Positions 36,009 through 44,989 of a stretch of 64,000 nt of DNA are shown here, one piece after another; position 1 is the first letter of the stretch; each line of letters opens with the position of its first letter. This DNA is from a virus (lineage: Duplodnaviria > Heunggongvirae > Uroviricota > Caudoviricetes), in IMG/VR virus record IMGVR_UViG_2695420859_000012, one strand, 5' to 3'. The notes under the pieces were generated by a model. The model was not told the DNA's origin and made no database searches. It saw nothing but the letters and a program-made list of their open reading frames with translations. The translations under genes were made by a program, and so were the position numbers.

Positions 36009-39000
36009 TTATTCTTTAGGTGAATTTAACTTCGTTTCAAGCTCCTCAACCCTTTTGGTCAATTGCTGAATATGATGAATGAGTGGTACAACCAAACGCT
36101 CATACATCACTCCTTCAGCGACCATACCATTTGAGGAAATATCTTCTGGAGAATCATTATTTGTTGGTTCACGCCAATGGACATATTGCGGGGCAATCTC
36201 ACCAACCTCTTCAGCAATAAGGCCGTAATACCCCCAATCCTTTCGGTCACCTCGACAAATTGAACGATACCAAACAGGTCTTAATGACAAAAGTTCATCA
36301 GCATATCGATCTTGTAATGTTTCAATATCCTTTTTATAGCGCCTTGAAGAGGTTGAACGCCAAACTGTATTGATACCTGGGTTTGGATCAATGTACATAT
36401 TGGCACCGCTAGTAGTTGTGCCAATATCCCATATAGCAAACCCTCCACTACCGCCTGATTTGACAACCAGTGTTTCAGCAATAATATCCAGGTTGCCACT
36501 ATAGCCTGTCAGTGATGATCTGCTTGCATAGGAACTTAGAAGGTTTGTTACCTCTGTTTTCGTGTAAGCATTAAGGTTAGCCGCAGTCAAAGTTATATCG
36601 GCAGAGCCATCAAACGCCACACCAGCAATTTTCCTTGCTGTCTGCAATTTTGTGGCGGTTGCGGCATTACCAGTAGTGTTCTGATTACCAGTTGTATTCA
36701 CACCAGGGATTGAATCCTTAGCGGTATATACCTGCGCCCACGCTGACCATGCCGCACCTGTGTTATCTCTTCGTGAGCGAATGAAAACTGGCGCATGTGC
36801 ACCGCTCGTACCACTCCAGCCAATAAGCAACTCTCCCTCACCAGCAGCACTCGCACCTTTCATGTGCAATACGTTGCCATACATGGTCGGGTAGCTATTG
36901 TTGTACGCCTCGTACATTTGAATGCCAGCAGTGCCTTGAGTAGAGCCGCTTAACGCCGTAACTCGGCCACGAGATACCAATGTATTAATGTTGATATCGC
37001 CTGAGCCATCAAACTTAACACCATTGATGTTTCTCGCTGTTTGCAACTTCGTAGCTGTTGAAGCATTACCGTTCAAACTACCATTTACGCCACCAGTCAC
37101 ATTTAGTCCATTACCAATTGATACAGCACCGCTGGTATTATTAATTGTAATAGGTCGCAAACCGTTCCATGAACCTAATGTGTCTCCTGATGCTGTTAGC
37201 ATGAAATATGTGTTCGATCCATCATTACGGATAAAGAACCCAAAGCTACCGTAAGCAATGCGGAAACCATTTGCATATTTTGAAATGATCTCGCCAGAAG
37301 ATGTCAAACCTCCAGATAATGTACCACCGGTAAGAGGTAATGCACCGACATCAGAGGCTGTTGGTTTGTTTTTCGTGTTATATACTCTTCGCCATCCCGG
37401 AGAATAATCTGTGCCATTAAATACATAGATAAACTCCGCATTAGTGAGAGCACCAGAGACACTCGTCGTTGTGGCCGTTGTTATACGGATCGTATAATTG
37501 TTTGAGCTACTACCGTTATTAAATACCTCTATAACAGCTCCTGCCAATGGAATAACGCCACAACCAGTTTCACTATTTGGTATGGTTGCACTATTGGCAT
37601 AGGCCCACGCACATCGAGCAATCCATGACTTTGTGTTAAATGCTCCATTATTTTGCAATAACGTCACTAACTGTGCTGTTGTTATTGCTCCGCCATTACT
37701 TCCTGTAGTTAACCAACCAGTAGGAGATGCCGGGCAACCTATATTTGCTGGCGACAAGGAAATATTTGCCGAGCCGTCAAACGACACCCCATTGATAGTA
37801 CGCGCAGTCTGCAACTTCGTAGCAGTAGCCGCGTTGCCCGTTGTATTCTGATTACCAGTCGTATTAACACCTGGCAAATTAATATTCGCAGTACCATCAA
37901 AGCTCACGCCGCCGATAGTTCTTGCCGTCTGAAGTTTTGTAGCAGTTGCAGCATTACCAGTGGTGTTCTGATTACCCGTAGTATTTACACCTGGAAGGTT
38001 GATATTTGCAGAACCGTCGAAACCAACTCCACCGATAGATCTTGCCGTCTGCAATTTCGTTGCTGTACTTGCATTACCATTTAATGTTCCGGTGATCCCA
38101 CCAGTAACAGACAACGGACCTGAAACTGTTCCTCCGGTTGTTGGCAGTGCTCCAATATCTAACGGCGTCGGTTTCTGATGTGTGCTATACATCGTATAAA
38201 CAACACCATCGGTAACGCTGGAAGGCTTACTAGCTGAATATGTTGGCGATGTATAAATAGAAACTGTCGCATTTGCAGTACAATCCCAATGGATATTTAC
38301 ACGAGTCGCATAATTGCCAATCTCAACGTAAATATCATATGTATCGCCGGATGTGTTGATCCAGGCGAAATTCGTTAATCCGACAGCTGTACGCTTCCAC
38401 AAAGCACCTGTAATCCCTTTGGGGTTTCCATTGCCTGCTCGTAGAACCAGTTCTGAAATGCCTGCCTGATGTGGGGAGCCGACGTTGTAACCAGCGCCAC
38501 CAATCAATGCGATGTAAACGATGGAACTCGCTTGTGGCATGGTAACCGTAGCCAGTTTGAACCACCCTGCCCCGCCAGAGAAAGACATCGTTACTGAATT
38601 TAAAGTACCAATATCTTTCGGCGTTAATGTGATATCCGCAGTCAGTGCTTTACCGTTAACTTTTCGGTTAGATGGCACCCTGCTATTCGCATTGTCATTG
38701 GCTGCTTTAACTGCTTTTGGCGTTGCGGCCAGCGATTCACTGGTGCTGTCGACAGCACTGCTAAGTTTCACAACACCTTTAGTTGTAAGGCTTGCGTCTT
38801 CCATCGCAACTGCACCGGCAATCTCTTCAGCACGATCAGCAGCAGCTTCCGCACGGGTCGCAGCGGATTCAGCAGCAGTTTTGCTCTGAGATGCTGCCGT
38901 CGCACTGCCTGCCGCCTCTGTTGCTTTCGTGGATGCCGTCGTGGCGCTGCCCTTCGCTGCTGACGCCTGTCTGGTCGCCTCATCTTTTGAAGCAGACGCA

Positions 39001-40166
39001 GATGATGCCGATGACGCTGCCGAACTGGCGGACGATGCGGCTGCCGTTTTTGAGGATTCTGCACGGGTTTCCGACGCTTTCGCGTTCGTTTCGGATGTCT
39101 TCGCTGCGGAAGCAGACCTCGCTGCTGCGCTGGCCTGTTCAGTGGCTTCGCCAGCCTTCGTTGTGGCTGTTGAAGCAGACGATGCGGCACTTTCTGCCGA
39201 TTTTCCGGCGGCTGTGGCACTGGCTGAGGCCTGCCCGGCACTTGTTGACGCGGCACTGGCAGACGACGCAGCCGCTGTTTTTGAGCCTGCTGCAGCCGAG
39301 GCGCTCTGTCCCGCTGCCGTTTCAGAAGACCTGGCGTTCGTCTCGGACGTTTTTGCCGCCTTCGCGGAATTTCCTGCCGCCGTTGCCGAGGAAGCTGCGC
39401 TACTGGCGCTCGAGGATGCGTTCGTTTCTGATGATTTCGCTGCCTCTTTTGAGGCCGCCGCATCCCGGGCTGAGGTGGCAGCTTCTGACGCTTTCGTGGT
39501 CGCGGTGGATGCAGAAGTGGCTGCTGATTGTTGTGACGCTGCGGCATTCGTTTCAGATTTTTTCGCAGCAGTTGCACTCGCACTTGCGGCACTTTGTGAG
39601 GATGCCGCAGCGGATGCACTTTGAGACGCTTGAGAGGCTTTTTCTCCAGCGGTATTGGCGCTTTCTGCTGCTGCGGCAGCACTGGCCGCCGCCTCACGAG
39701 CTTTGTCGCCAGCAGCATCAATCGCGTCAGTGTTATTTTTATACCACTCAACGTTTTCGTTGTGCTCGTTGACGATCTGCATTAGCGGCTTAACGGTTAC
39801 TTCTGAACCGTCTTCACGCTCGATTGTCACCTCATCCAGAGCAGTCAACCAACTGCGCATGGACTTGGAATCAGCCGACATACGCGACATTAGTGCTGTA
39901 AAGCGCGCGCTAAACTGTGTTAAGTCGCCTTCATAGGTCGTAATGATTCGGCACGGAACTTCAGACTGAGTTTCGCCGGTATAAGGTTCTGAGAGAACAA
40001 TGTTCGTATCACTGGTTACGCGCTTGATCTCATACAGCTTATTGTCGGGGCCAATGACGATCATCCCCGGCAACACACCATTAGCTGTTACGTTCCAGGC
40101 TGTCCCTGCCCCAACCAGAGTATTGCTGCCCTGTGTAAATGTGATAGTACCTTCCCTGTACCACAT
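36009..40166 (-). CDS. Long tail fibre with C-terminal intramolecular-chaperone domain
   Basis: 1385 aa; Ala/Ser/Thr-rich shaft; repeated NAATATKLQTARTIGGVSFDG fibre motifs; C-terminal ...SSRRYKKDIETLQ... region resembles the S74-type chaperone as recalled. Confidence 0.8.
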   Translation of the reverse strand: MWYREGTITFTQGSNTLVGAGTAWNVTANGVLPGMIVIGPDNKLYEIKRVTSDTNIVLSEPYTGETQSEVPCRIITTYEGDLTQFSARFTALMSRMSADSKSMRSWLTALDEVTIEREDGSEVTVKPLMQIVNEHNENVEWYKNNTDAIDAAGDKAREAAASAAAAAESANTAGEKASQASQSASAAASSQSAASASATAAKKSETNAAASQQSAATSASTATTKASEAATSARDAAASKEAAKSSETNASSSASSAASSATAAGNSAKAAKTSETNARSSETAAGQSASAAAGSKTAAASSASAASTSAGQASASATAAGKSAESAASSASTATTKAGEATEQASAAARSASAAKTSETNAKASETRAESSKTAAASSASSAASSASSASASKDEATRQASAAKGSATTASTKATEAAGSATAASQSKTAAESAATRAEAAADRAEEIAGAVAMEDASLTTKGVVKLSSAVDSTSESLAATPKAVKAANDNANSRVPSNRKVNGKALTADITLTPKDIGTLNSVTMSFSGGAGWFKLATVTMPQASSIVYIALIGGAGYNVGSPHQAGISELVLRAGNGNPKGITGALWKRTAVGLTNFAWINTSGDTYDIYVEIGNYATRVNIHWDCTANATVSIYTSPTYSASKPSSVTDGVVYTMYSTHQKPTPLDIGALPTTGGTVSGPLSVTGGITGTLNGNASTATKLQTARSIGGVGFDGSANINLPGVNTTGNQNTTGNAATATKLQTARTIGGVSFDGTANINLPGVNTTGNQNTTGNAATATKLQTARTINGVSFDGSANISLSPANIGCPASPTGWLTTGSNGGAITTAQLVTLLQNNGAFNTKSWIARCAWAYANSATIPNSETGCGVIPLAGAVIEVFNNGSSSNNYTIRITTATTTSVSGALTNAEFIYVFNGTDYSPGWRRVYNTKNKPTASDVGALPLTGGTLSGGLTSSGEIISKYANGFRIAYGSFGFFIRNDGSNTYFMLTASGDTLGSWNGLRPITINNTSGAVSIGNGLNVTGGVNGSLNGNASTATKLQTARNINGVKFDGSGDININTLVSRGRVTALSGSTQGTAGIQMYEAYNNSYPTMYGNVLHMKGASAAGEGELLIGWSGTSGAHAPVFIRSRRDNTGAAWSAWAQVYTAKDSIPGVNTTGNQNTTGNAATATKLQTARKIAGVAFDGSADITLTAANLNAYTKTEVTNLLSSYASRSSLTGYSGNLDIIAETLVVKSGGSGGFAIWDIGTTTSGANMYIDPNPGINTVWRSTSSRRYKKDIETLQDRYADELLSLRPVWYRSICRGDRKDWGYYGLIAEEVGEIAPQYVHWREPTNNDSPEDISSNGMVAEGVMYERLVVPLIHHIQQLTKRVEELETKLNSPKE

Positions 40167-40258: not shown

Positions 40259-43200
40259 TTACAGAAGGCCAATTCTTACTCGTAGGACGTTGTTATCGTC
40301 ATAAACGTCAATCCGCTGACCATTTATGACCAGTCGCCCATTACCCCCGCTATTACCGTTGATCTCAAGCGTTCCATTTTTGCCGAACCGCCATCCAGAT
40401 CTACCGCTAACAAAATTGGTAGATTGCAGATCGCCTACTTTTGCATTGGTGATTGTGCCATCCTTGATATACGCACCATTCATATAGGCGATACTGTTTT
40501 CGATAACAAATGGCGTGGTGATCTTCCCGTTAACAGAGTTGACCAAACCAAACCTGTCAGCCTGCACCAAAAACTGAGAAAGGCCAGTGGTGTCGATACC
40601 AAGCGCAATACCAGCAACATACTTCTGCCCTCCGCTCGTTGAAGTTTCCATTTTCAACGTCCACGCGGTTGACACTTTTTTGTTGGTATCAGCAATAGCT
40701 GTTGCCTGCTGTTGAATTGTCGCGGTATTTCCATCCACCTCTGCTTTCAGAGTATCGATTCGCCCACTCAGAGCATTATCTGCCTGCGTTCTCGCTGTCG
40801 TTTCAGTTGTTACCGCCGCGGAAATGTTGGCTGCCGTTTGAGACTCTAAGTTTGTGATTTGAGTCGCCAATGCAGCATCTTGCTCTGTACGCGTTTTCGT
40901 TTCGGTTGCTACAGCCGCTTTAATATCCTCTTTGTATTGAGAGGTCAGCTTGGTGATCTGAGACGACAACGCCGAGTCAGCATCAGTTCGAGCCTGCGTT
41001 TCAACTGCAACGGCCGCACTAATATCTTTCGCTGTCTGTGCTTTTAAACTTGAAACCTCTTTTGTTAAAGCGGTATCACCATCAGCACGAGCCGTTGTTT
41101 CTCTGGCAAGAGATGCCTCGAGATCATTAGCTTTTGCTGTAAGAGACGAAATCTGAGTGGACAATGCACTATCGGCATCAGTCCTTGCCTTTGTCTCTAC
41201 AGCAACCGCTGCGGCAATATCAGTTCCGGTTTGTGCTCGCAGGCTGTTAATTTCTCGTGAGAGCGCCTGGTCAGCACTTGCTCTGGCCTCCTGCTCCTGA
41301 GTGATGGCAGCGGATATATCACCGTCAACCTTTGACTGAAGCTGGTTTATTTGTTTGGCTAACGCAGAGTCCCCGCTTGCTCGGGCCTCCTGCTCACTAC
41401 GTATTGCAGCAGAAATATCATCATCAACCTTTGCCTGAAGTTGGGTGATCTGGCTTGCCAGAGCCGAATCTTCCGTTGCTCGGGCTTCTTGCTCTTCCTT
41501 AATAGCTGCGACGATATCGTTGCTTACTTTCGACTCAAGCTGAGTGATCTGTGTCGTCAGAGCTTCATCGGCAGATGTGCGAGCCTCCTGCTCTGTACTA
41601 ATCGCCGCGCTGATATCTCCTTCAAACTTAGATTGCAGCTGAGTGACACGCTTTGCCAACGCTTCATCGCCATCGGCACGAGCGGTGGACTCTTCCAGAA
41701 TACTGGCCTTAATGTCTTCGCCAATTTCTACGCGAATTTCCTCAACCTTCGTGGCCATTGCAGACATATCATCAGCAAAGGTTTTCTGTGTTGTTGCGAT
41801 CTTCGCGTTATTGACCATCTGCTTGTGCTGGTCTTCATCTTGACGAAGAGCTAGGTCAATATTTGTTTTGGCTAACGCCTCAATGTTCGTAGTCAGTTCT
41901 GCACTGGCACGATCGACCTCTGCAACCGTCTTTTTCATTTCTTCAACGGCAGCGGAGCTTTCCTCTACCGTTGACTGCAACACTTCCAGTTGTTTAGCGT
42001 TTGCAGCATCGCCTTCAACACGAGCCTCGCTTTCCTTAGCAATAAGAGCCGCCGCTTCATCTCTTGCAGCCTTTATTGCCTCGACTGTATTAGCGAGAGC
42101 TTTATCGTGTTCAGATACGGTGTTTTCGATTTCAACAATTGCAGCATCAGTAGCATCAATTTTTTCAAACGCTTCATTGACCTTGTCGATCGTTGCCGAA
42201 ACCTCACCTTTAAGCTCGGTTTGTGCGTTCTCCAAAGCATCGCTACGCTCGTTGAATTTTATTTCAAAACCCGCGAGGTTATCGCTGAACTGCTTATCTA
42301 ATTCAGCTATATCTTCCTTAACGTCGTTTACCGACCCCTCCAAAGATTCGACGCTCTGGTTGATATGCTCATTTAACTCGTCAACTGCTTCTTGAGAGGC
42401 TTTGCTGTTGATGTCCTCAAGCAGAGCCTGACCAAGCTCGGAAGATGTAATTTTGCCAGCCAGGAACGACAGTACATCGCGAGTTGTCGCCTCTGTACCC
42501 AAGTTTGAGTTCGGAGGGCTTAACATACCTCGCTTGTTCGATGCTCGAACCCAGTAATACCACGTTTCGCTATCCCCAAGGCCAGCATGTGTAAAGGTGG
42601 TGCTTGCAGACTCTGCGATCAGTTTCGCCGTATCCAGATTGTTGGTCTGGGATGCGTAAACATTAATGTGATCAAGGTCTACCGAATCTGGATTAACCCA
42701 ATTCAGTATCACATTACGATAGTCTCCAACGGCCGTTAATGACGTTGGTGCATCCGGCGGTGTCATTGTGCCCAGCACCTGATAAACGGTACTGATAATT
42801 TCTGTTTTTTTACCGTTGAATGAAACCGCATACAGTTGGAAGTCGTAGCGTCCATTCTCCGCGACATTAACGATTTCGTATTGTTCTTCGGTTACACGCG
42901 CCGATTGCCAGTTCGATACATTGTTTTCATCAGAACGTCGCCAACTGATCCAATACTCTGGAGATTTCCCTTCCCATGTTGCAGTCAGTTTTACTGACAG
43001 GTTGCCCGGGCTTGAGAGGTAAGTCCCTTCAGTGATTTGCAAATTAGACGGCTTGGAGTAAGTCGGGTCCAATACCGTCGTATTCTGCGGGATAAGCGTT
43101 GCACCATTGTCGATCGCCTCATATTTAGACGGATTGTTTTCAACAGCGGTGATGTCAAAGCTACCCGACGTTTCCCCCTGAGCGATGTTAACGATGCGAA

Positions 43201-44989
43201 CGCGCATAGGTTCGAGATCTGGTTCTGTAATTGTCCAGACACCGTTCAAAACAGGCGTTTCCGCTGACGACAGAGCTTTTGAAAACGTAACCTTTGTTAT
43301 GTTTTCGCCAGTTTCAAGAACATCGCGCTCAACGATTTTGCCTTCCTGATTCAATATCCGAATAAAGCTGCCGCTTTTAGCTAACGACACAGGCGCATCG
43401 AGAGTGATGCTGTTTTTGGTAAACTCCACAATTCGACCGGAGTTACGTTTACCTGCACGATATTTGTTCTGAATCAGAACGGTTTCACCGGGCATCAGAA
43501 ATGAGGCGTCTAAGCCGGCAGTAAATGTAATTACATCCGACTCCATTCTGGCGGTATACAAAAGCCACAAACCAACTCGGTGAGCCTGGCCTCGGCTTGT
43601 ACATCCAAATGCTACGACTTCTGTTTTACGCTCACCATAACGGCGCATTGCGTCCTGATCTTCAACGTACTCGATGTTTTGCTTATAACCGTCCTCCTTG
43701 TTGTTGTAGGTTACGAGCGCAACGGATGGGCGATCTTTACGCGCAGAACCTTTATAGGTAAACAGTCCATCTTTGACGTTGGAGTTGGTAAACATCATTA
43801 CTGGATCTGATGGGCTATCCTGCATGATGTTAACCATGCCACCAGCCCAAAACACCATGCCGCGGAATGCACCGGCAATATCCTGAATTAATCGGTATGC
43901 GTCTTGTCGACTGGTGATCTGCGTATTGATTGCAAAGCGTTTCTCTTTACCCCCAAAGCCATCATCGACCTCTTCGTCACAATATCGACCAATCTGGTAG
44001 AGCTGGCCGAGGTCAATCATGGATTCCGACACAAATTGCCCAAGACCATACCGAGTATTGGTAAGCAAATCGTAGAGAATCCACGCAGGGTTTGAAGAAG
44101 ACAACAGCTTAAAAGTACCGTCCCATACGCCGACATAAGTATTGGTGTATTCGTTGTAGTTTGACGGTACTCGGATTTTGATACCGCGCACCAAATACGA
44201 ACGGGAAGGCATTGTGCTACCAAACTGCTCTGAATTGACCTTCAAGCCAACAAGAGCAGAGTTAGGGTAGTTCATTGGCGTGTCGACAATCTCACCTATG
44301 GAATCAACCCATGTGTCGTTGTAGAGGTACTGGCTACTGTTATCATCTGTAAGACGAATCACCCTAACCTTGTATGCACGACCAGGCTTAGGTAGTTTCA
44401 GCTCATAGCTACGGTAATACACGCCGGTTTTCTTTGCCGTTAGCGTGATATCAACGCTTTTCTCACCTTCTGCCACTACATCAGAAAATGTTGCGTCTCC
44501 GTTGGCGATCTGGAATTTGTACTTCACCGTAGTGCCATTTGTATCGCCAGAGCTTTTATCAACGCTACGTAAAGAGGGGAATTTCATGATGACACGAACG
44601 CGATCAGCTTCATCGTTATCGATTGAAACCGTAACGTCGTGTGTTTTTTTAAGCTGAATATTTACGGACTTAGGCGTTTCGACAAAATCAAAACCAGCCA
44701 TTGGCGTCTGGTCTTGTGAGCCGTCACGAAAATCCCATGTAATACCGCTGAAGTTGGAAGAGCCATCTTCATTCAAGATCGGTAAATCGTCGATGAAGAT
44801 CGACTTTGCGCCATTTACCAGGCCACCGATAACCCCCTCGCCAAGAAGGTCGAGGATGGCTGCCATAGCACGAGAATTGACAGTATCATCAGCTTCAACC
44901 GGGGTACGGCTGGAGCTTTTACTTTTCTTGCCACCAGCACCGGCAATAAGAAGCGGTAATTTTTTCTTCTTGAACTGTTCCATGTCCAA
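40259..44989 (-). CDS. Central tail fibre / host-specificity protein (lambda gpJ-like)
   Basis: 1576 aa following gpI-like gene; contains about 33-aa tandem coiled-coil repeats. Confidence 0.75.
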   Translation of the reverse strand: MDMEQFKKKKLPLLIAGAGGKKSKSSSRTPVEADDTVNSRAMAAILDLLGEGVIGGLVNGAKSIFIDDLPILNEDGSSNFSGITWDFRDGSQDQTPMAGFDFVETPKSVNIQLKKTHDVTVSIDNDEADRVRVIMKFPSLRSVDKSSGDTNGTTVKYKFQIANGDATFSDVVAEGEKSVDITLTAKKTGVYYRSYELKLPKPGRAYKVRVIRLTDDNSSQYLYNDTWVDSIGEIVDTPMNYPNSALVGLKVNSEQFGSTMPSRSYLVRGIKIRVPSNYNEYTNTYVGVWDGTFKLLSSSNPAWILYDLLTNTRYGLGQFVSESMIDLGQLYQIGRYCDEEVDDGFGGKEKRFAINTQITSRQDAYRLIQDIAGAFRGMVFWAGGMVNIMQDSPSDPVMMFTNSNVKDGLFTYKGSARKDRPSVALVTYNNKEDGYKQNIEYVEDQDAMRRYGERKTEVVAFGCTSRGQAHRVGLWLLYTARMESDVITFTAGLDASFLMPGETVLIQNKYRAGKRNSGRIVEFTKNSITLDAPVSLAKSGSFIRILNQEGKIVERDVLETGENITKVTFSKALSSAETPVLNGVWTITEPDLEPMRVRIVNIAQGETSGSFDITAVENNPSKYEAIDNGATLIPQNTTVLDPTYSKPSNLQITEGTYLSSPGNLSVKLTATWEGKSPEYWISWRRSDENNVSNWQSARVTEEQYEIVNVAENGRYDFQLYAVSFNGKKTEIISTVYQVLGTMTPPDAPTSLTAVGDYRNVILNWVNPDSVDLDHINVYASQTNNLDTAKLIAESASTTFTHAGLGDSETWYYWVRASNKRGMLSPPNSNLGTEATTRDVLSFLAGKITSSELGQALLEDINSKASQEAVDELNEHINQSVESLEGSVNDVKEDIAELDKQFSDNLAGFEIKFNERSDALENAQTELKGEVSATIDKVNEAFEKIDATDAAIVEIENTVSEHDKALANTVEAIKAARDEAAALIAKESEARVEGDAANAKQLEVLQSTVEESSAAVEEMKKTVAEVDRASAELTTNIEALAKTNIDLALRQDEDQHKQMVNNAKIATTQKTFADDMSAMATKVEEIRVEIGEDIKASILEESTARADGDEALAKRVTQLQSKFEGDISAAISTEQEARTSADEALTTQITQLESKVSNDIVAAIKEEQEARATEDSALASQITQLQAKVDDDISAAIRSEQEARASGDSALAKQINQLQSKVDGDISAAITQEQEARASADQALSREINSLRAQTGTDIAAAVAVETKARTDADSALSTQISSLTAKANDLEASLARETTARADGDTALTKEVSSLKAQTAKDISAAVAVETQARTDADSALSSQITKLTSQYKEDIKAAVATETKTRTEQDAALATQITNLESQTAANISAAVTTETTARTQADNALSGRIDTLKAEVDGNTATIQQQATAIADTNKKVSTAWTLKMETSTSGGQKYVAGIALGIDTTGLSQFLVQADRFGLVNSVNGKITTPFVIENSIAYMNGAYIKDGTITNAKVGDLQSTNFVSGRSGWRFGKNGTLEINGNSGGNGRLVINGQRIDVYDDNNVLRVRIGLL

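Follow-up and report, generated by a model that had tools for sequence, protein, structure and literature searches.

The locus studied here raises the question of what a regular tandem repeat does inside the central fibre gene of a tailed phage. The window, the whole 64,000-nt stretch of DNA that was analysed (IMG/VR record IMGVR_UViG_2695420859_000012), is an SSU5-like phage-plasmid of E. coli, and its DNA was identical to that of E. coli pM160133_p3 across the 2,242 nt compared. The ORF at 40259-44989 (minus strand, 1576 aa at its longest) is the J-like central fibre or tip attachment gene, for which the ATG at 44983, with AAGGA just 5' of it, is the more likely start. The original prediction had called this a gpJ-like central fibre gene, and the evidence agreed: the Pfam domains (FNIII-A_GpJ at aa 103-237, Phage-tail_3 at 359-522, fn3 at 746-825, and Phage_Tail_Tip at 1424-1558), the match of aa 22-862 to lambda J (8iyk_J, E = 1e-127), and placement in an L-K-I-J module. 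The upstream neighbours encode Phage_tail_L, a K-like JAB plus NlpC/P60 protein, and an I-like phrog_32 tail assembly protein, an order also found in Cyrano, PhiR41_1, and SSU5. The protein also matched the F2-pyocin fibre (E = 6e-156), while the NCBIfam model lambda_TipJ scored 534 bits, under its cut-off of 1950. Two antisense ORFs (41441-41854 and 41868-42395, both plus strand) lacked any family and were treated as spurious.

Lambda gpJ (8iyk, 8xcj) has homologous hub, FN3, and tip domains and the same L-K-I-J order, but its FN3 region, which extends to residue 837, runs directly into the tip at 839-971 with no helical shaft between them. The J-like protein of the window carries there a helical insert of ~570 aa that is missing from lambda J, and the repeats contribute 329 aa of it. 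The proposed expansion relative to lambda J was therefore real, and the lambda length of about 1130 aa given with it was close to the 1132 aa of PDB 8iyk_J. The repeats adjoin the Phage_Tail_Tip (DUF1983, PF09327) beta domain (40316-40720, minus; aa 1424-1558, E = 1.2e-41), which was the only part to find matches in a Foldseek search of the PDB, to the lambda central fibre (8xcj/8xci) and to SU10 (7z4b); the helix gave nothing informative in that search. The additional C-terminal domain with which lambda gpJ binds LamB is absent in the window: the J-like protein stops 18 aa past the tip domain, lambda J aligns to it only up to residue 971 of 1132, and no lambda-type receptor-binding domain was present at its C-terminus.

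The array consists of ten tandem units (40730-41716, minus; aa 1092-1420), which we delimited by periodicity, register, motifs, and helix models. In protein order, and all on the minus strand, these are unit 1 at 41618-41716 (from aa 1092), unit 2 at 41519-41617 (from aa 1125), unit 3 at 41420-41518 (from aa 1158), unit 4 at 41321-41419 (from aa 1191), unit 5 at 41222-41320 (from aa 1224), unit 6 at 41126-41221 (from aa 1257), unit 7 at 41027-41125 (from aa 1289), unit 8 at 40928-41026 (from aa 1322), unit 9 at 40829-40927 (from aa 1355), and unit 10 at 40730-40828 (from aa 1388). Nine of the ten are 33 aa long and unit 6 alone has 32, for a total of 329 aa. The one-residue deletion in unit 6 shifts the register of units 7-10, and their apparent lack of relation to units 1-6 (identity ~0.06) was an artefact of that deletion, gone after register correction. 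The forecast of roughly ten repeats of about 33 aa was thus matched by ten units in register. The previously given consensus, DISAAI..EQEAR...D.AL..QI..L.SKV, described units 2-5 best, and the consensus of units 6-10 is a related one, DI.AAVA.ET.ARTDADSAL..QI..L..QT.

The periodicity was evident at the protein level. Identity at lag 33 was 0.45 over aa 1050-1420, against a mean of 0.098 across lags 1-110, and 0.49 within the array, where 2000 residue shuffles gave 0.099 +/- 0.017 and at most 0.158 (z = 23). Values so far above the shuffles indicate true periodicity and rule out low-complexity composition, which had been named in advance as the artefact that might have produced the impression of a repeat. 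The predicted 99-bp period was also present in the DNA, with a lag-99 identity of 0.53 in the array and 0.29 at other in-frame lags, though the copies are diverged: units share 41-66% DNA identity and the longest exact repeat is 12 nt. Owing to this divergence, Tandem Repeats Finder saw merely 2.2 copies (41277-41494). The DNA copies of the unit are old. Searched alone, the array had no Pfam or NCBIfam model at cut-off (e.g., Mitofilin, 24 bits vs 27.4).

Structure models present the array as a helix. In AF2 monomer predictions it formed one continuous helix with pLDDT > 90, without Pro and with few Gly. Aa 1225-1408 stayed helical both from the single sequence and from a 110-sequence alignment, and no beta-prism was predicted. 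The two runs differed at aa ~1409-1441, where the single sequence continued the helix through aa 1441 while the alignment ended it at aa 1408 and placed beta strands from aa 1413, so that the junction between array and tip is ambiguous in these models. The repeats had been described as coiled coil, which holds for the helix and fails for a plain heptad, since the array has a period of 33/9 = 3.67 residues instead of the canonical 3.5. Its hydrophobicity spectrum contained two main harmonics, one alpha-like at 3.65 and one beta-like at 2.07.

These models are what a static spacer would be expected to give, namely a trimeric coiled coil of fixed fold that sets how far the tip projects across O-antigen or capsule, with copy number tuning its length. 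The confident continuous helix and its lack of Pro speak for such a spacer, which we regard as possible and rather doubtful, because it leaves the strong period-2 component unexplained. The helix 5' of the array (41717-42442, minus; aa 850-1091) had a sole hydrophobic period of 3.55, also lacked Pro, and had no Pfam family up to the cut-off. This non-periodic region nonetheless holds degenerate copies of the unit, with motif matches at 949/964, 981/996, 1013, and 1077. One of them, an isolated degenerate unit (41963-42049, minus; aa 981-1009; 13-18 bits with the unit HMM), occurred in all SSU5-like relatives with a complete gene, and in almost all loci it lay ~110 aa ahead of the array.

Among the closest known systems is the alpha-helical shaft of F-type pyocins, whose central fibre (PyoF10/PA0641) is represented by PDB 25vf and 9YG8-9YGD (He et al. 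PMC12874032; Yang et al. 2026 preprint; Gu et al. 2026 PMC13455828). He et al. (2026 preprint, PMC12874032) report that a 163-residue coiled-coil shaft in the F7 pyocin refolds into a triangular beta-prism and opens the tail; the fold switch comes from this one 2026 preprint on a pyocin (He et al., PMC12874032), which states that lambda and T5 lack such switching. The C-terminal 727 aa of the J-like protein matched the F2-pyocin central fibre 25vf_A with E = 7.6e-25, below the E < 1e-6 that He et al. apply as a sequence criterion for relation to the F-pyocin C-terminal region (PMC12874032). Query aa 1243-1548 paired with 25vf_A residues 884-1193, which span the shaft resolved as a coiled coil (given as 907-1084 or as 921-1083). 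Residue types in 25vf_A equalled those of F7 at 8/8 positions named by He et al., giving a shared numbering. In both proteins, which are lambda-J-like, the shaft follows the FN3 domains and precedes the DUF1983 beta-prism, and the C-terminus is without a lambda-type receptor-binding domain. He et al. describe a beta-prism "seed" that does not switch and sits just C-terminal of the helix (PMC12874032), and the beta tip domain stands in the same position relative to the array (strands from aa 1413, Pfam from aa 1424).

The correspondence extends to individual residues. The published motif is SxSxxMxxLxS in alternating orientation, with an acidic M-position residue that pairs with an Arg four residues away (PMC12874032). 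Both the motif and the Glu-Arg i+4 pair occur in the pyocin and in the window. Unit positions 4-14 read S-x-L-x-x-M-x-x-S-x-S and positions 19-29 the reverse, S-x-S-x-x-M-x-x-L-x-S, with Asp/Gly-rich turns at positions 15-18 and 31-33. Each orientation was satisfied at 5/5 positions in 10/10 units, motif matches in the array numbered 27 compared to 5.7 +/- 2.3 in shuffles, and E9 was followed by R13 four residues later in every unit (10/10). The F7 salt bridge E1039-R1043 aligned to E1396 and R1400, which are positions 9 and 13 of unit 10. Gln substitution of the F7 corner residues A987, A995, V1010, and A1017 abolishes killing while assembly is unaffected, and A998 and A1011 were harmless control substitutions (PMC12874032). 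The four corner residues, whose counterparts in the J-like protein are S1342, S1350, T1366, and A1373, fell on S positions of the unit (21, 29, 12, and 19, respectively) and the two controls on non-S positions (33 and 13). Pooled over 900 units, which came from 137 distant representative proteins, S positions were A 73 / S 11 / T 9 / V 4 %, L positions L 42 / I 40 / V 17 %, and M positions E 49 % with I/V/L 45 %, a sample biased towards similar units because the unit HMM behind it was made from the window. The published figures are 68/11/7/8 % at S and 33/32/25 % at L positions (PMC12874032), with 51% Leu/Ile/Val and 29% charged residues at M positions (PMC12874032), and the pooled frequencies of the 900 units match them.

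We conclude that the array units carry the sequence signature of the fold-switching F-type pyocin shaft. A static spacer would not explain why the residues at six surface positions of each unit are almost always small (94-100% at each in the 900 units), nor would it explain the exact correspondence to F7 residues vital for killing and not for assembly. Because the units match the pyocin segment reported to refold, the array probably acts as a modular spring and not as a simple spacer. The originally suggested tuning of fibre length is consistent with the variable copy number described below, but probably covers the function only in part, and the fold-switch signature had been missed. Our main reading, to which we assign a probability of roughly 0.6, is that the array forms the helical shaft of a trimeric central fibre built of ten 33-residue modules that refold to a beta-prism on contact. 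We infer the trimeric state, the fold switch, and what copy number means for function, the switch by homology.

Under the refolding-shaft reading, the modules would form a long three-stranded coiled coil in the virion, with nine core positions per 33 residues. At 329 aa this coil would be ~49 nm long by helix geometry and would keep the beta tip domain off the tail cone. Each module would also encode one beta-hairpin. Contact with the cell surface would trigger refolding of the coil, beginning at the tip-domain end, into a triangular beta-prism, as reported for the F7 pyocin; the fibre would then shorten and swing aside, the tail tip would open, and the tape-measure protein would be released. 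The number of units would set both fibre reach and prism size, hence stored energy, and only whole units, of two strands each, could be gained or lost if the antiparallel register is to be preserved. A count of two strands for each 33-aa unit is not readily reconciled with the 5-6 strands that He et al. give for 163 residues (PMC12874032). The array is also twice as long as the F7 segment, and a prism with 20 strands per chain is not known; perhaps the distal units alone switch.

Relatives differed in the number of units. Counts were taken from loci, as the homologous proteins found were < ~920 aa and many were partial; these were used for alignment. Arrays contained 3 to 13 units, with 5 in SSU5, 6 in Y. 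pestis, 9 in PhiR41_1, ten in Cyrano, and 12-13 in Xenorhabdus, and the unit total per protein reached 25 in metagenomic relatives. The anticipated differences in repeat number among relatives were found, and they came in whole-unit steps: among 43 distinct relatives, array spans differed by only 0, 33, 66, 131, 164/165, 197, or 230 aa, and relatives without unit 6 differed by n x 33 + 1. The helix 5' of the array behaved differently, with length differences of 7, 8, 18, 25, 29, and 36 aa and never 33. Variation from 3 to 13 units among relatives of different hosts is also consistent with a static spacer, but such a spacer does not explain why the array is free of 7- or 11-residue indels while the upstream helix has, e.g., one of 7 aa. 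Quantised indels may reflect how units come and go, and not selection on hairpin number.

Whole-unit steps could also arise if the 99-bp period were a hotspot for recombination or slippage, frequently changing fibre length in the manner of a contingency locus. One otherwise identical gene pair, L037 and L038, fits such a hotspot: the proteins were identical at 587/587 aa save a clean one-unit indel, and the DNA had 2 mismatches in 1761 nt and a length difference of exactly 99 bp, with 10 units in L037 and 9 in L038. Another pair, at 95% aa identity, also had a one-unit indel. However, the L037/L038 junction had a microhomology of 2 nt, DNA identity between units is just 41-66% and no exact run in common exceeds 12 bases, array length was equal in 13/13 plasmids at 96.5-100% identity among the matches listed, and all 14 distinct sequences of the window lineage contained 10 units. 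We therefore consider the hotspot very improbable, and given the divergence of the units and the constant length in near-identical plasmids, the array is probably not recombination-prone today, contrary to what had been supposed. An assembly artefact in the copy number was likewise dismissed, since the 10-unit array was present in many independent complete plasmids and its copies are too different to collapse.

Within the refolding-shaft reading, we tentatively suggest, at somewhat less than even odds, that the fibre is a modular, sequence-encoded spring with the 33-residue unit as its quantum, ~4.9 nm of coil converting to one hairpin and ~1 nm of prism height, and with unit number setting stroke and energy as tuned to the thickness of the host surface layer.

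Side fibres offer a different use for the shaft. The side-fibre gene (36009-40166, minus; 1385 aa) lies downstream of the J-like gene, and the N-terminal 107 aa of its product (39846-40163, minus) resemble the F2-pyocin side-fibre attachment region, residues 2-107 giving a weak match to 3-104 of 25ve_A (E = 4.5e-4). As the side fibres of F-type pyocins attach to the central-fibre shaft and share a similar N-terminus, and as the N-terminal 150 aa are conserved among the window, Cyrano, PhiR41_1, and SSU5 while distal parts differ, the repeats might serve as a platform on which the 1385-aa side fibres dock, at one site per unit or group of units. We think this unlikely. In the pyocin, side fibres bind to a single site that is kinked and negatively charged, with no docking along a repeat, and units vary from 3 to 13 whereas the side-fibre N-terminus is conserved. 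By analogy with the F-type pyocin, a better candidate docking site may be the highly conserved non-repeat segment AKTNIDLALRQDEDQHKQMVNNAKIATTQK (41765-41872, minus; aa ~1040-1075), which was near-invariant in 13 diverse relatives while its flanks were variable.

If the array refolds as proposed, it would be classed by its sequence as a further instance of a recently described kind of fold-switching shaft, with the switch here assigned by homology. It is unlike the pyocin shaft in size and regularity: that shaft has ~163-178 residues, of which the window unit HMM clearly recognised one unit (27 bits), whereas the window has ten regular units (329 aa) plus ~240 aa of helix. The F-type pyocin is also a tailocin in which the switch was observed, while the window is an infectious phage-plasmid for which it is inferred. 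The main text of He et al. (PMC12874032) makes no mention of SSU5, repeats, heptads, or hendecads. T1 gp33 (9l9p_S, 1172 aa), another J-like protein, places 33-residue units of its own ahead of a homologous tip domain, with DIQASLTDIREVIATETEALSREIDQLKAQIGD occurring twice in identical form, and shares the protein end …LRVQIGR, but its units number only about three. In gp33 the fibre part (821-1172) was unresolved and is known from an AF3 prediction alone (PMC11945409), and the description of its C-terminus as merely a long flexible alpha/beta fibre (PMC11945409) would suit a static spacer. The SSU5-group phage-plasmids (Salmonella phage SSU5, the Escherichia phages Cyrano and PhiR41_1, and pMT1-type plasmids of Y. 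pestis) share the gene, module, and unit with the window; they differ in unit number, and some members add 80-140 aa after the tip domain.

The wider issue is how non-contractile tails power the breach of the envelope, for which the coil-to-prism proposal, the only answer of its type put forward, is based on one pyocin. If the fibre of these phage-plasmids bears a ten-fold regular module with whole-unit natural variants, it would offer a tractable infectious system for asking whether real phages switch and how the size of the switch scales with function, and if the spring reading is true, the one-unit variants L037 and L038 would be a ready allelic series for energy per unit. SSU5-like phage-plasmids are common in clinical Enterobacteriaceae, and a search with the 3' part of the J gene gave matches in 769 plasmid records, some of them from Yersinia pestis and Salmonella. 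The repeat region, which is without a Pfam or NCBIfam model, also calls for a correction of annotation, as some homologues are called Smc: among the matches listed, 3 of 60 plasmid records labelled the homologue "Chromosome partition protein Smc".

Ten consecutive units appeared at aa 1090–1419 when the J-like protein, the central tail-fibre protein resembling lambda J, was laid out at a 33-residue period. Lag-33 identity was 0.45 over aa 1050–1420 against a mean of 0.098 for lags 1–110, with the next-highest peaks at lags 66 and 99, and the lag-identity scan found no 33-residue periodicity in the remainder of the protein. Inside the array, lag-33 identity was 0.49 vs 0.099 ± 0.017 in 2000 shuffles (z = 23), and DNA lag-99 identity was 0.53 vs 0.29. 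The tandem ~33-aa repeats of the original prediction are thus real and lie almost exactly where it placed them. Corrected for register, units start at aa 1092, 1125, 1158, 1191, 1224, 1257, 1289, 1322, 1355, and 1388 (window 40730–41716, minus strand). Unit 6 has 32 residues; this one-residue deletion produced an apparent dissimilarity between units 1–6 and 7–10, and we rejected the idea that the two sets are unrelated. Pairwise identity among the ten units was 31–75% for protein (mean 49%, corrected register) and 41–66% for DNA (mean 52%). Tandem Repeats Finder detected only 2.2 copies because the DNA copies have diverged, the longest exact repeat within the array being 12 nt.

The array is contained in a minus-strand ORF of 4731 nt (40259–44989, 1576 aa). 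Pfam assigned FNIII-A_GpJ, Phage-tail_3, and fn3 domains, then Phage_Tail_Tip/DUF1983 (aa 1424–1558) immediately after the array. L-, K-, and I-like proteins were encoded directly upstream and a 1385-aa side fibre downstream. Escherichia phages CMS-2020a and Cyrano have J genes 95% identical to this gene, PhiR41_1 matched only its first 56% at megablast level, and over its 3′ 2242 nt, a region with matches in 769 plasmid records, there was 100% identity with E. coli plasmid pM160133_p3. By sequence similarity, these matches place the window among the SSU5-group phage-plasmids. A mosaic boundary was evident at window ~42336 (minus strand; J nt ~2654, aa ~884): PhiR41_1 and CP054387 shared 89% nucleotide identity over the first 56% of the gene and then fell below megablast detection, so the shaft-plus-tip half of J apparently undergoes modular exchange. 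The longest ORF opens at TTG 44989, and ATG 44983 sits 10 nt after AAGGA (44971–44989, minus strand); translation more probably begins at the ATG. In the matching plasmid, the RefSeq CDS was 18 nt shorter than the ORF. Three Klebsiella plasmid records (OW968391.1, OW967791.1, OW967783.1) labelled the J homologue ‘Chromosome partition protein Smc’, probably a misannotation driven by the coiled coil.

No Pfam or NCBIfam model reached threshold on the array. The unit itself is widespread: searching 1.84 billion representative proteins with the array (phmmer) returned 728 matches at E ≤ 1e-10; those listed were up to 2850 aa long with up to 25 units per protein, in contiguous runs whose median was 4 and whose maximum was 13. 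We built a unit HMM, counted units in the J homologues of 88 loci, and tabulated 49 distinct C-termini. Five tandem units (17 distinct sequences) and ten (14) were followed by six (7), nine (4), three and four (2 each), and eight, 12, and 13 (1 each), with part of the low counts due to truncated ORFs. SSU5 and Kluyvera had five units, Yersinia pestis six, PhiR41_1 nine, the window and Cyrano ten, and Xenorhabdus 12–13. Measured from one conserved anchor to another, the array spans of 43 distinct sequences differed from that of the window by 0, 33, 66, 131, 164/165, 197, or 230 aa, i.e., by multiples of 33, +1 where the 32-aa unit was missing. Upstream-helix lengths differed by 7, 8, 18, 25, 29, and 36 aa. 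Two strands per unit, as proposed below, would account for gains and losses being confined to whole units, but a purely mechanistic origin of these quantised changes is also possible.

Two relatives’ loci, L037 and L038, matched at 587/587 aligned residues, their 1761 nt containing 2 mismatches, and differed by one clean 99-bp unit with a junction microhomology of only 2 nt; L053/L054 had a further one-unit indel. Within the window lineage, all 14 distinct sequences had ten units, and array span was the same in 13/13 plasmids at 96.5–100% identity among the matches listed. The expectation that the array is recombination-prone and may tune fibre length found partial support: judged from these comparisons, units have been gained and lost over evolutionary time, and the array does not behave as a present-day hotspot. 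We give little weight to the reading of the array as a recombination hotspot. The J homologues of L008, L007, L060–L062, L068, L057, and L069, including that of Y. pestis, had 238–295 aa after the array vs 156; this extra C-terminal domain past the tip domain is possibly a receptor-binding module.

Lambda J has 1132 aa; as aligned, its tip domain (839–971) directly adjoins an FN3 region that extends to residue 837. A ~570-aa helix (aa 850–1420) is therefore extra in the window protein, 329 residues of it being regular array, whereas the lambda C-terminal receptor-binding domain is absent. A PDB sequence search gave three relevant matches: the F2 pyocin central fibre (25vf_A; E = 7.6e-25, over its residues 884–1193), T1 gp33 (9l9p_S), which has 33-residue units of its own, and the DEV podophage tail-tip protein (9ze4_N). 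T1 gp33 residues ~913–985 hold two perfectly identical 33-residue copies, DIQASLTDIREVIATETEALSREIDQLKAQIGD, an indication that this kind of unit was duplicated recently.

In F-type pyocins, the PA0641 shaft (907–1084) forms, as resolved by Yang et al. (2026), a trimeric coiled coil that stutters near its end, and side fibres dock on it; the same docking mode was found at a kink around G955 (Gu et al. 2026, PMC13455828). He et al. (2026 preprint, PMC12874032) reported that the F7 pyocin's 163-residue coiled coil (921–1083) becomes a triangular beta-prism once the cell is contacted, which opens the tip and ejects the tape-measure protein. Gln at small prism-corner residues abolished killing with assembly unaffected. 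They described a motif, SxSxxMxxLxS, with direction set by strand direction, acidic M residues paired with Arg four residues away, and a non-switching beta-prism seed after the shaft. Repeats, heptads, hendecads, and SSU5 all go unmentioned in their main text, and a modular view and natural copy-number series are apparently undiscussed in the F-type pyocin fibre papers (for He et al., the main text).

All ten window units carried the motif in reverse (A-x-[ILV]-x-x-E-x-x-[AT]-x-[AT], unit positions 4–14) and forward (A-x-[AST]-x-x-[IV]-x-x-L-x-[SA], positions 19–29), with R13 four residues after E9 in 10/10 and Asp/Gly-rich positions 15–18 and 31–33. Motif matches in the array numbered 27 vs 5.7 ± 2.3 in shuffles, and A4, E9, R13, D17, A19, L20, and L27 were invariant. 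Since 25vf_A carries, at 8/8 positions cited by He et al., the residue types they name, it shares numbering with the F7 fibre. In the HMMER alignment, the four pyocin-lethal corner residues fell on unit positions 21, 29, 12, and 19, all S positions, the two harmless control substitutions on 33 and 13, and F7 E1039 and R1043 on window E1396 and R1400. Pooled across 900 units from 137 distant proteins, S positions were A 73 / S 11 / T 9 / V 4%, L positions were L 42 / I 40 / V 17%, and M positions were E 49% with I/V/L 45%. These values are close to the figures of He et al. (PMC12874032), with the caveat that the HMM used to collect the units was derived from the window. The largest hydrophobicity harmonics of the array were 2.07 and 3.65 residues, while the upstream helix had 3.55 only; the array sequence is therefore amphipathic both as a strand and as a helix whose core takes up 9 positions in every 33.

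We favour, with a probability of roughly 0.6, the interpretation that the array is the shaft of a trimeric central fibre. Each module would encode both a ~4.9 nm coiled coil and one beta-hairpin, and by homology the array would be metastable and refold after receptor contact, beginning at the tip-domain end. Standard geometry suggests a ~49 nm coil vs a ~10 nm 20-strand sheet. Fold-switching shafts have been known as a kind since 2026; the window array, as a putative member of this kind, adds a new case of unusual length and regularity from a clinically common phage-plasmid group.

A single-sequence monomer model gave one helix over aa 1223–1441 (pLDDT >90) with a poorly predicted tip. With a 110-sequence alignment, the helix extended to aa 1408, strands began at aa 1413, and the tip was confidently beta, with matches to lambda's central fibre and a tail-tip protein of SU10. 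The helix/strand boundary thus shifts by about one unit between models. The array is helical in both, and these monomer models speak neither for nor against a prism state, which needs three chains. We consider a static spacer less likely than the refolding shaft.

The first 107 aa of the side fibre (39846–40163, minus strand; gene 36009–40166) matched the F2-pyocin side-fibre N-terminus (25ve_A, E = 4.5e-4); in the pyocin, this OB/stem region is what docks on the shaft of the central fibre. Cyrano, PhiR41_1, and SSU5 (total lengths 1341, 597, and 1260 aa) conserve the N-terminal 150 aa, while distal parts differed. This homology is compatible with an array serving as a docking platform, to which we assign only a slight chance. 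Outside the repeats, a J segment at aa ~1040–1075 (41765–41872, minus strand), AKTNIDLALRQDEDQHKQMVNNAKIATTQK, was near-invariant in 13 diverse relatives while the surrounding helices varied; it is acidic, as is the docking kink of the pyocin shaft. The side-fibre gene (36009–40166, minus strand) also encodes a long Ser/Ala/Thr-rich low-complexity stretch (~aa 150–450), NTTGNQNTTGNAATATKLQTAR segments that recur, a Gp34_trimer domain, and, at the C-terminus, a Peptidase_S74 intramolecular chaperone domain.
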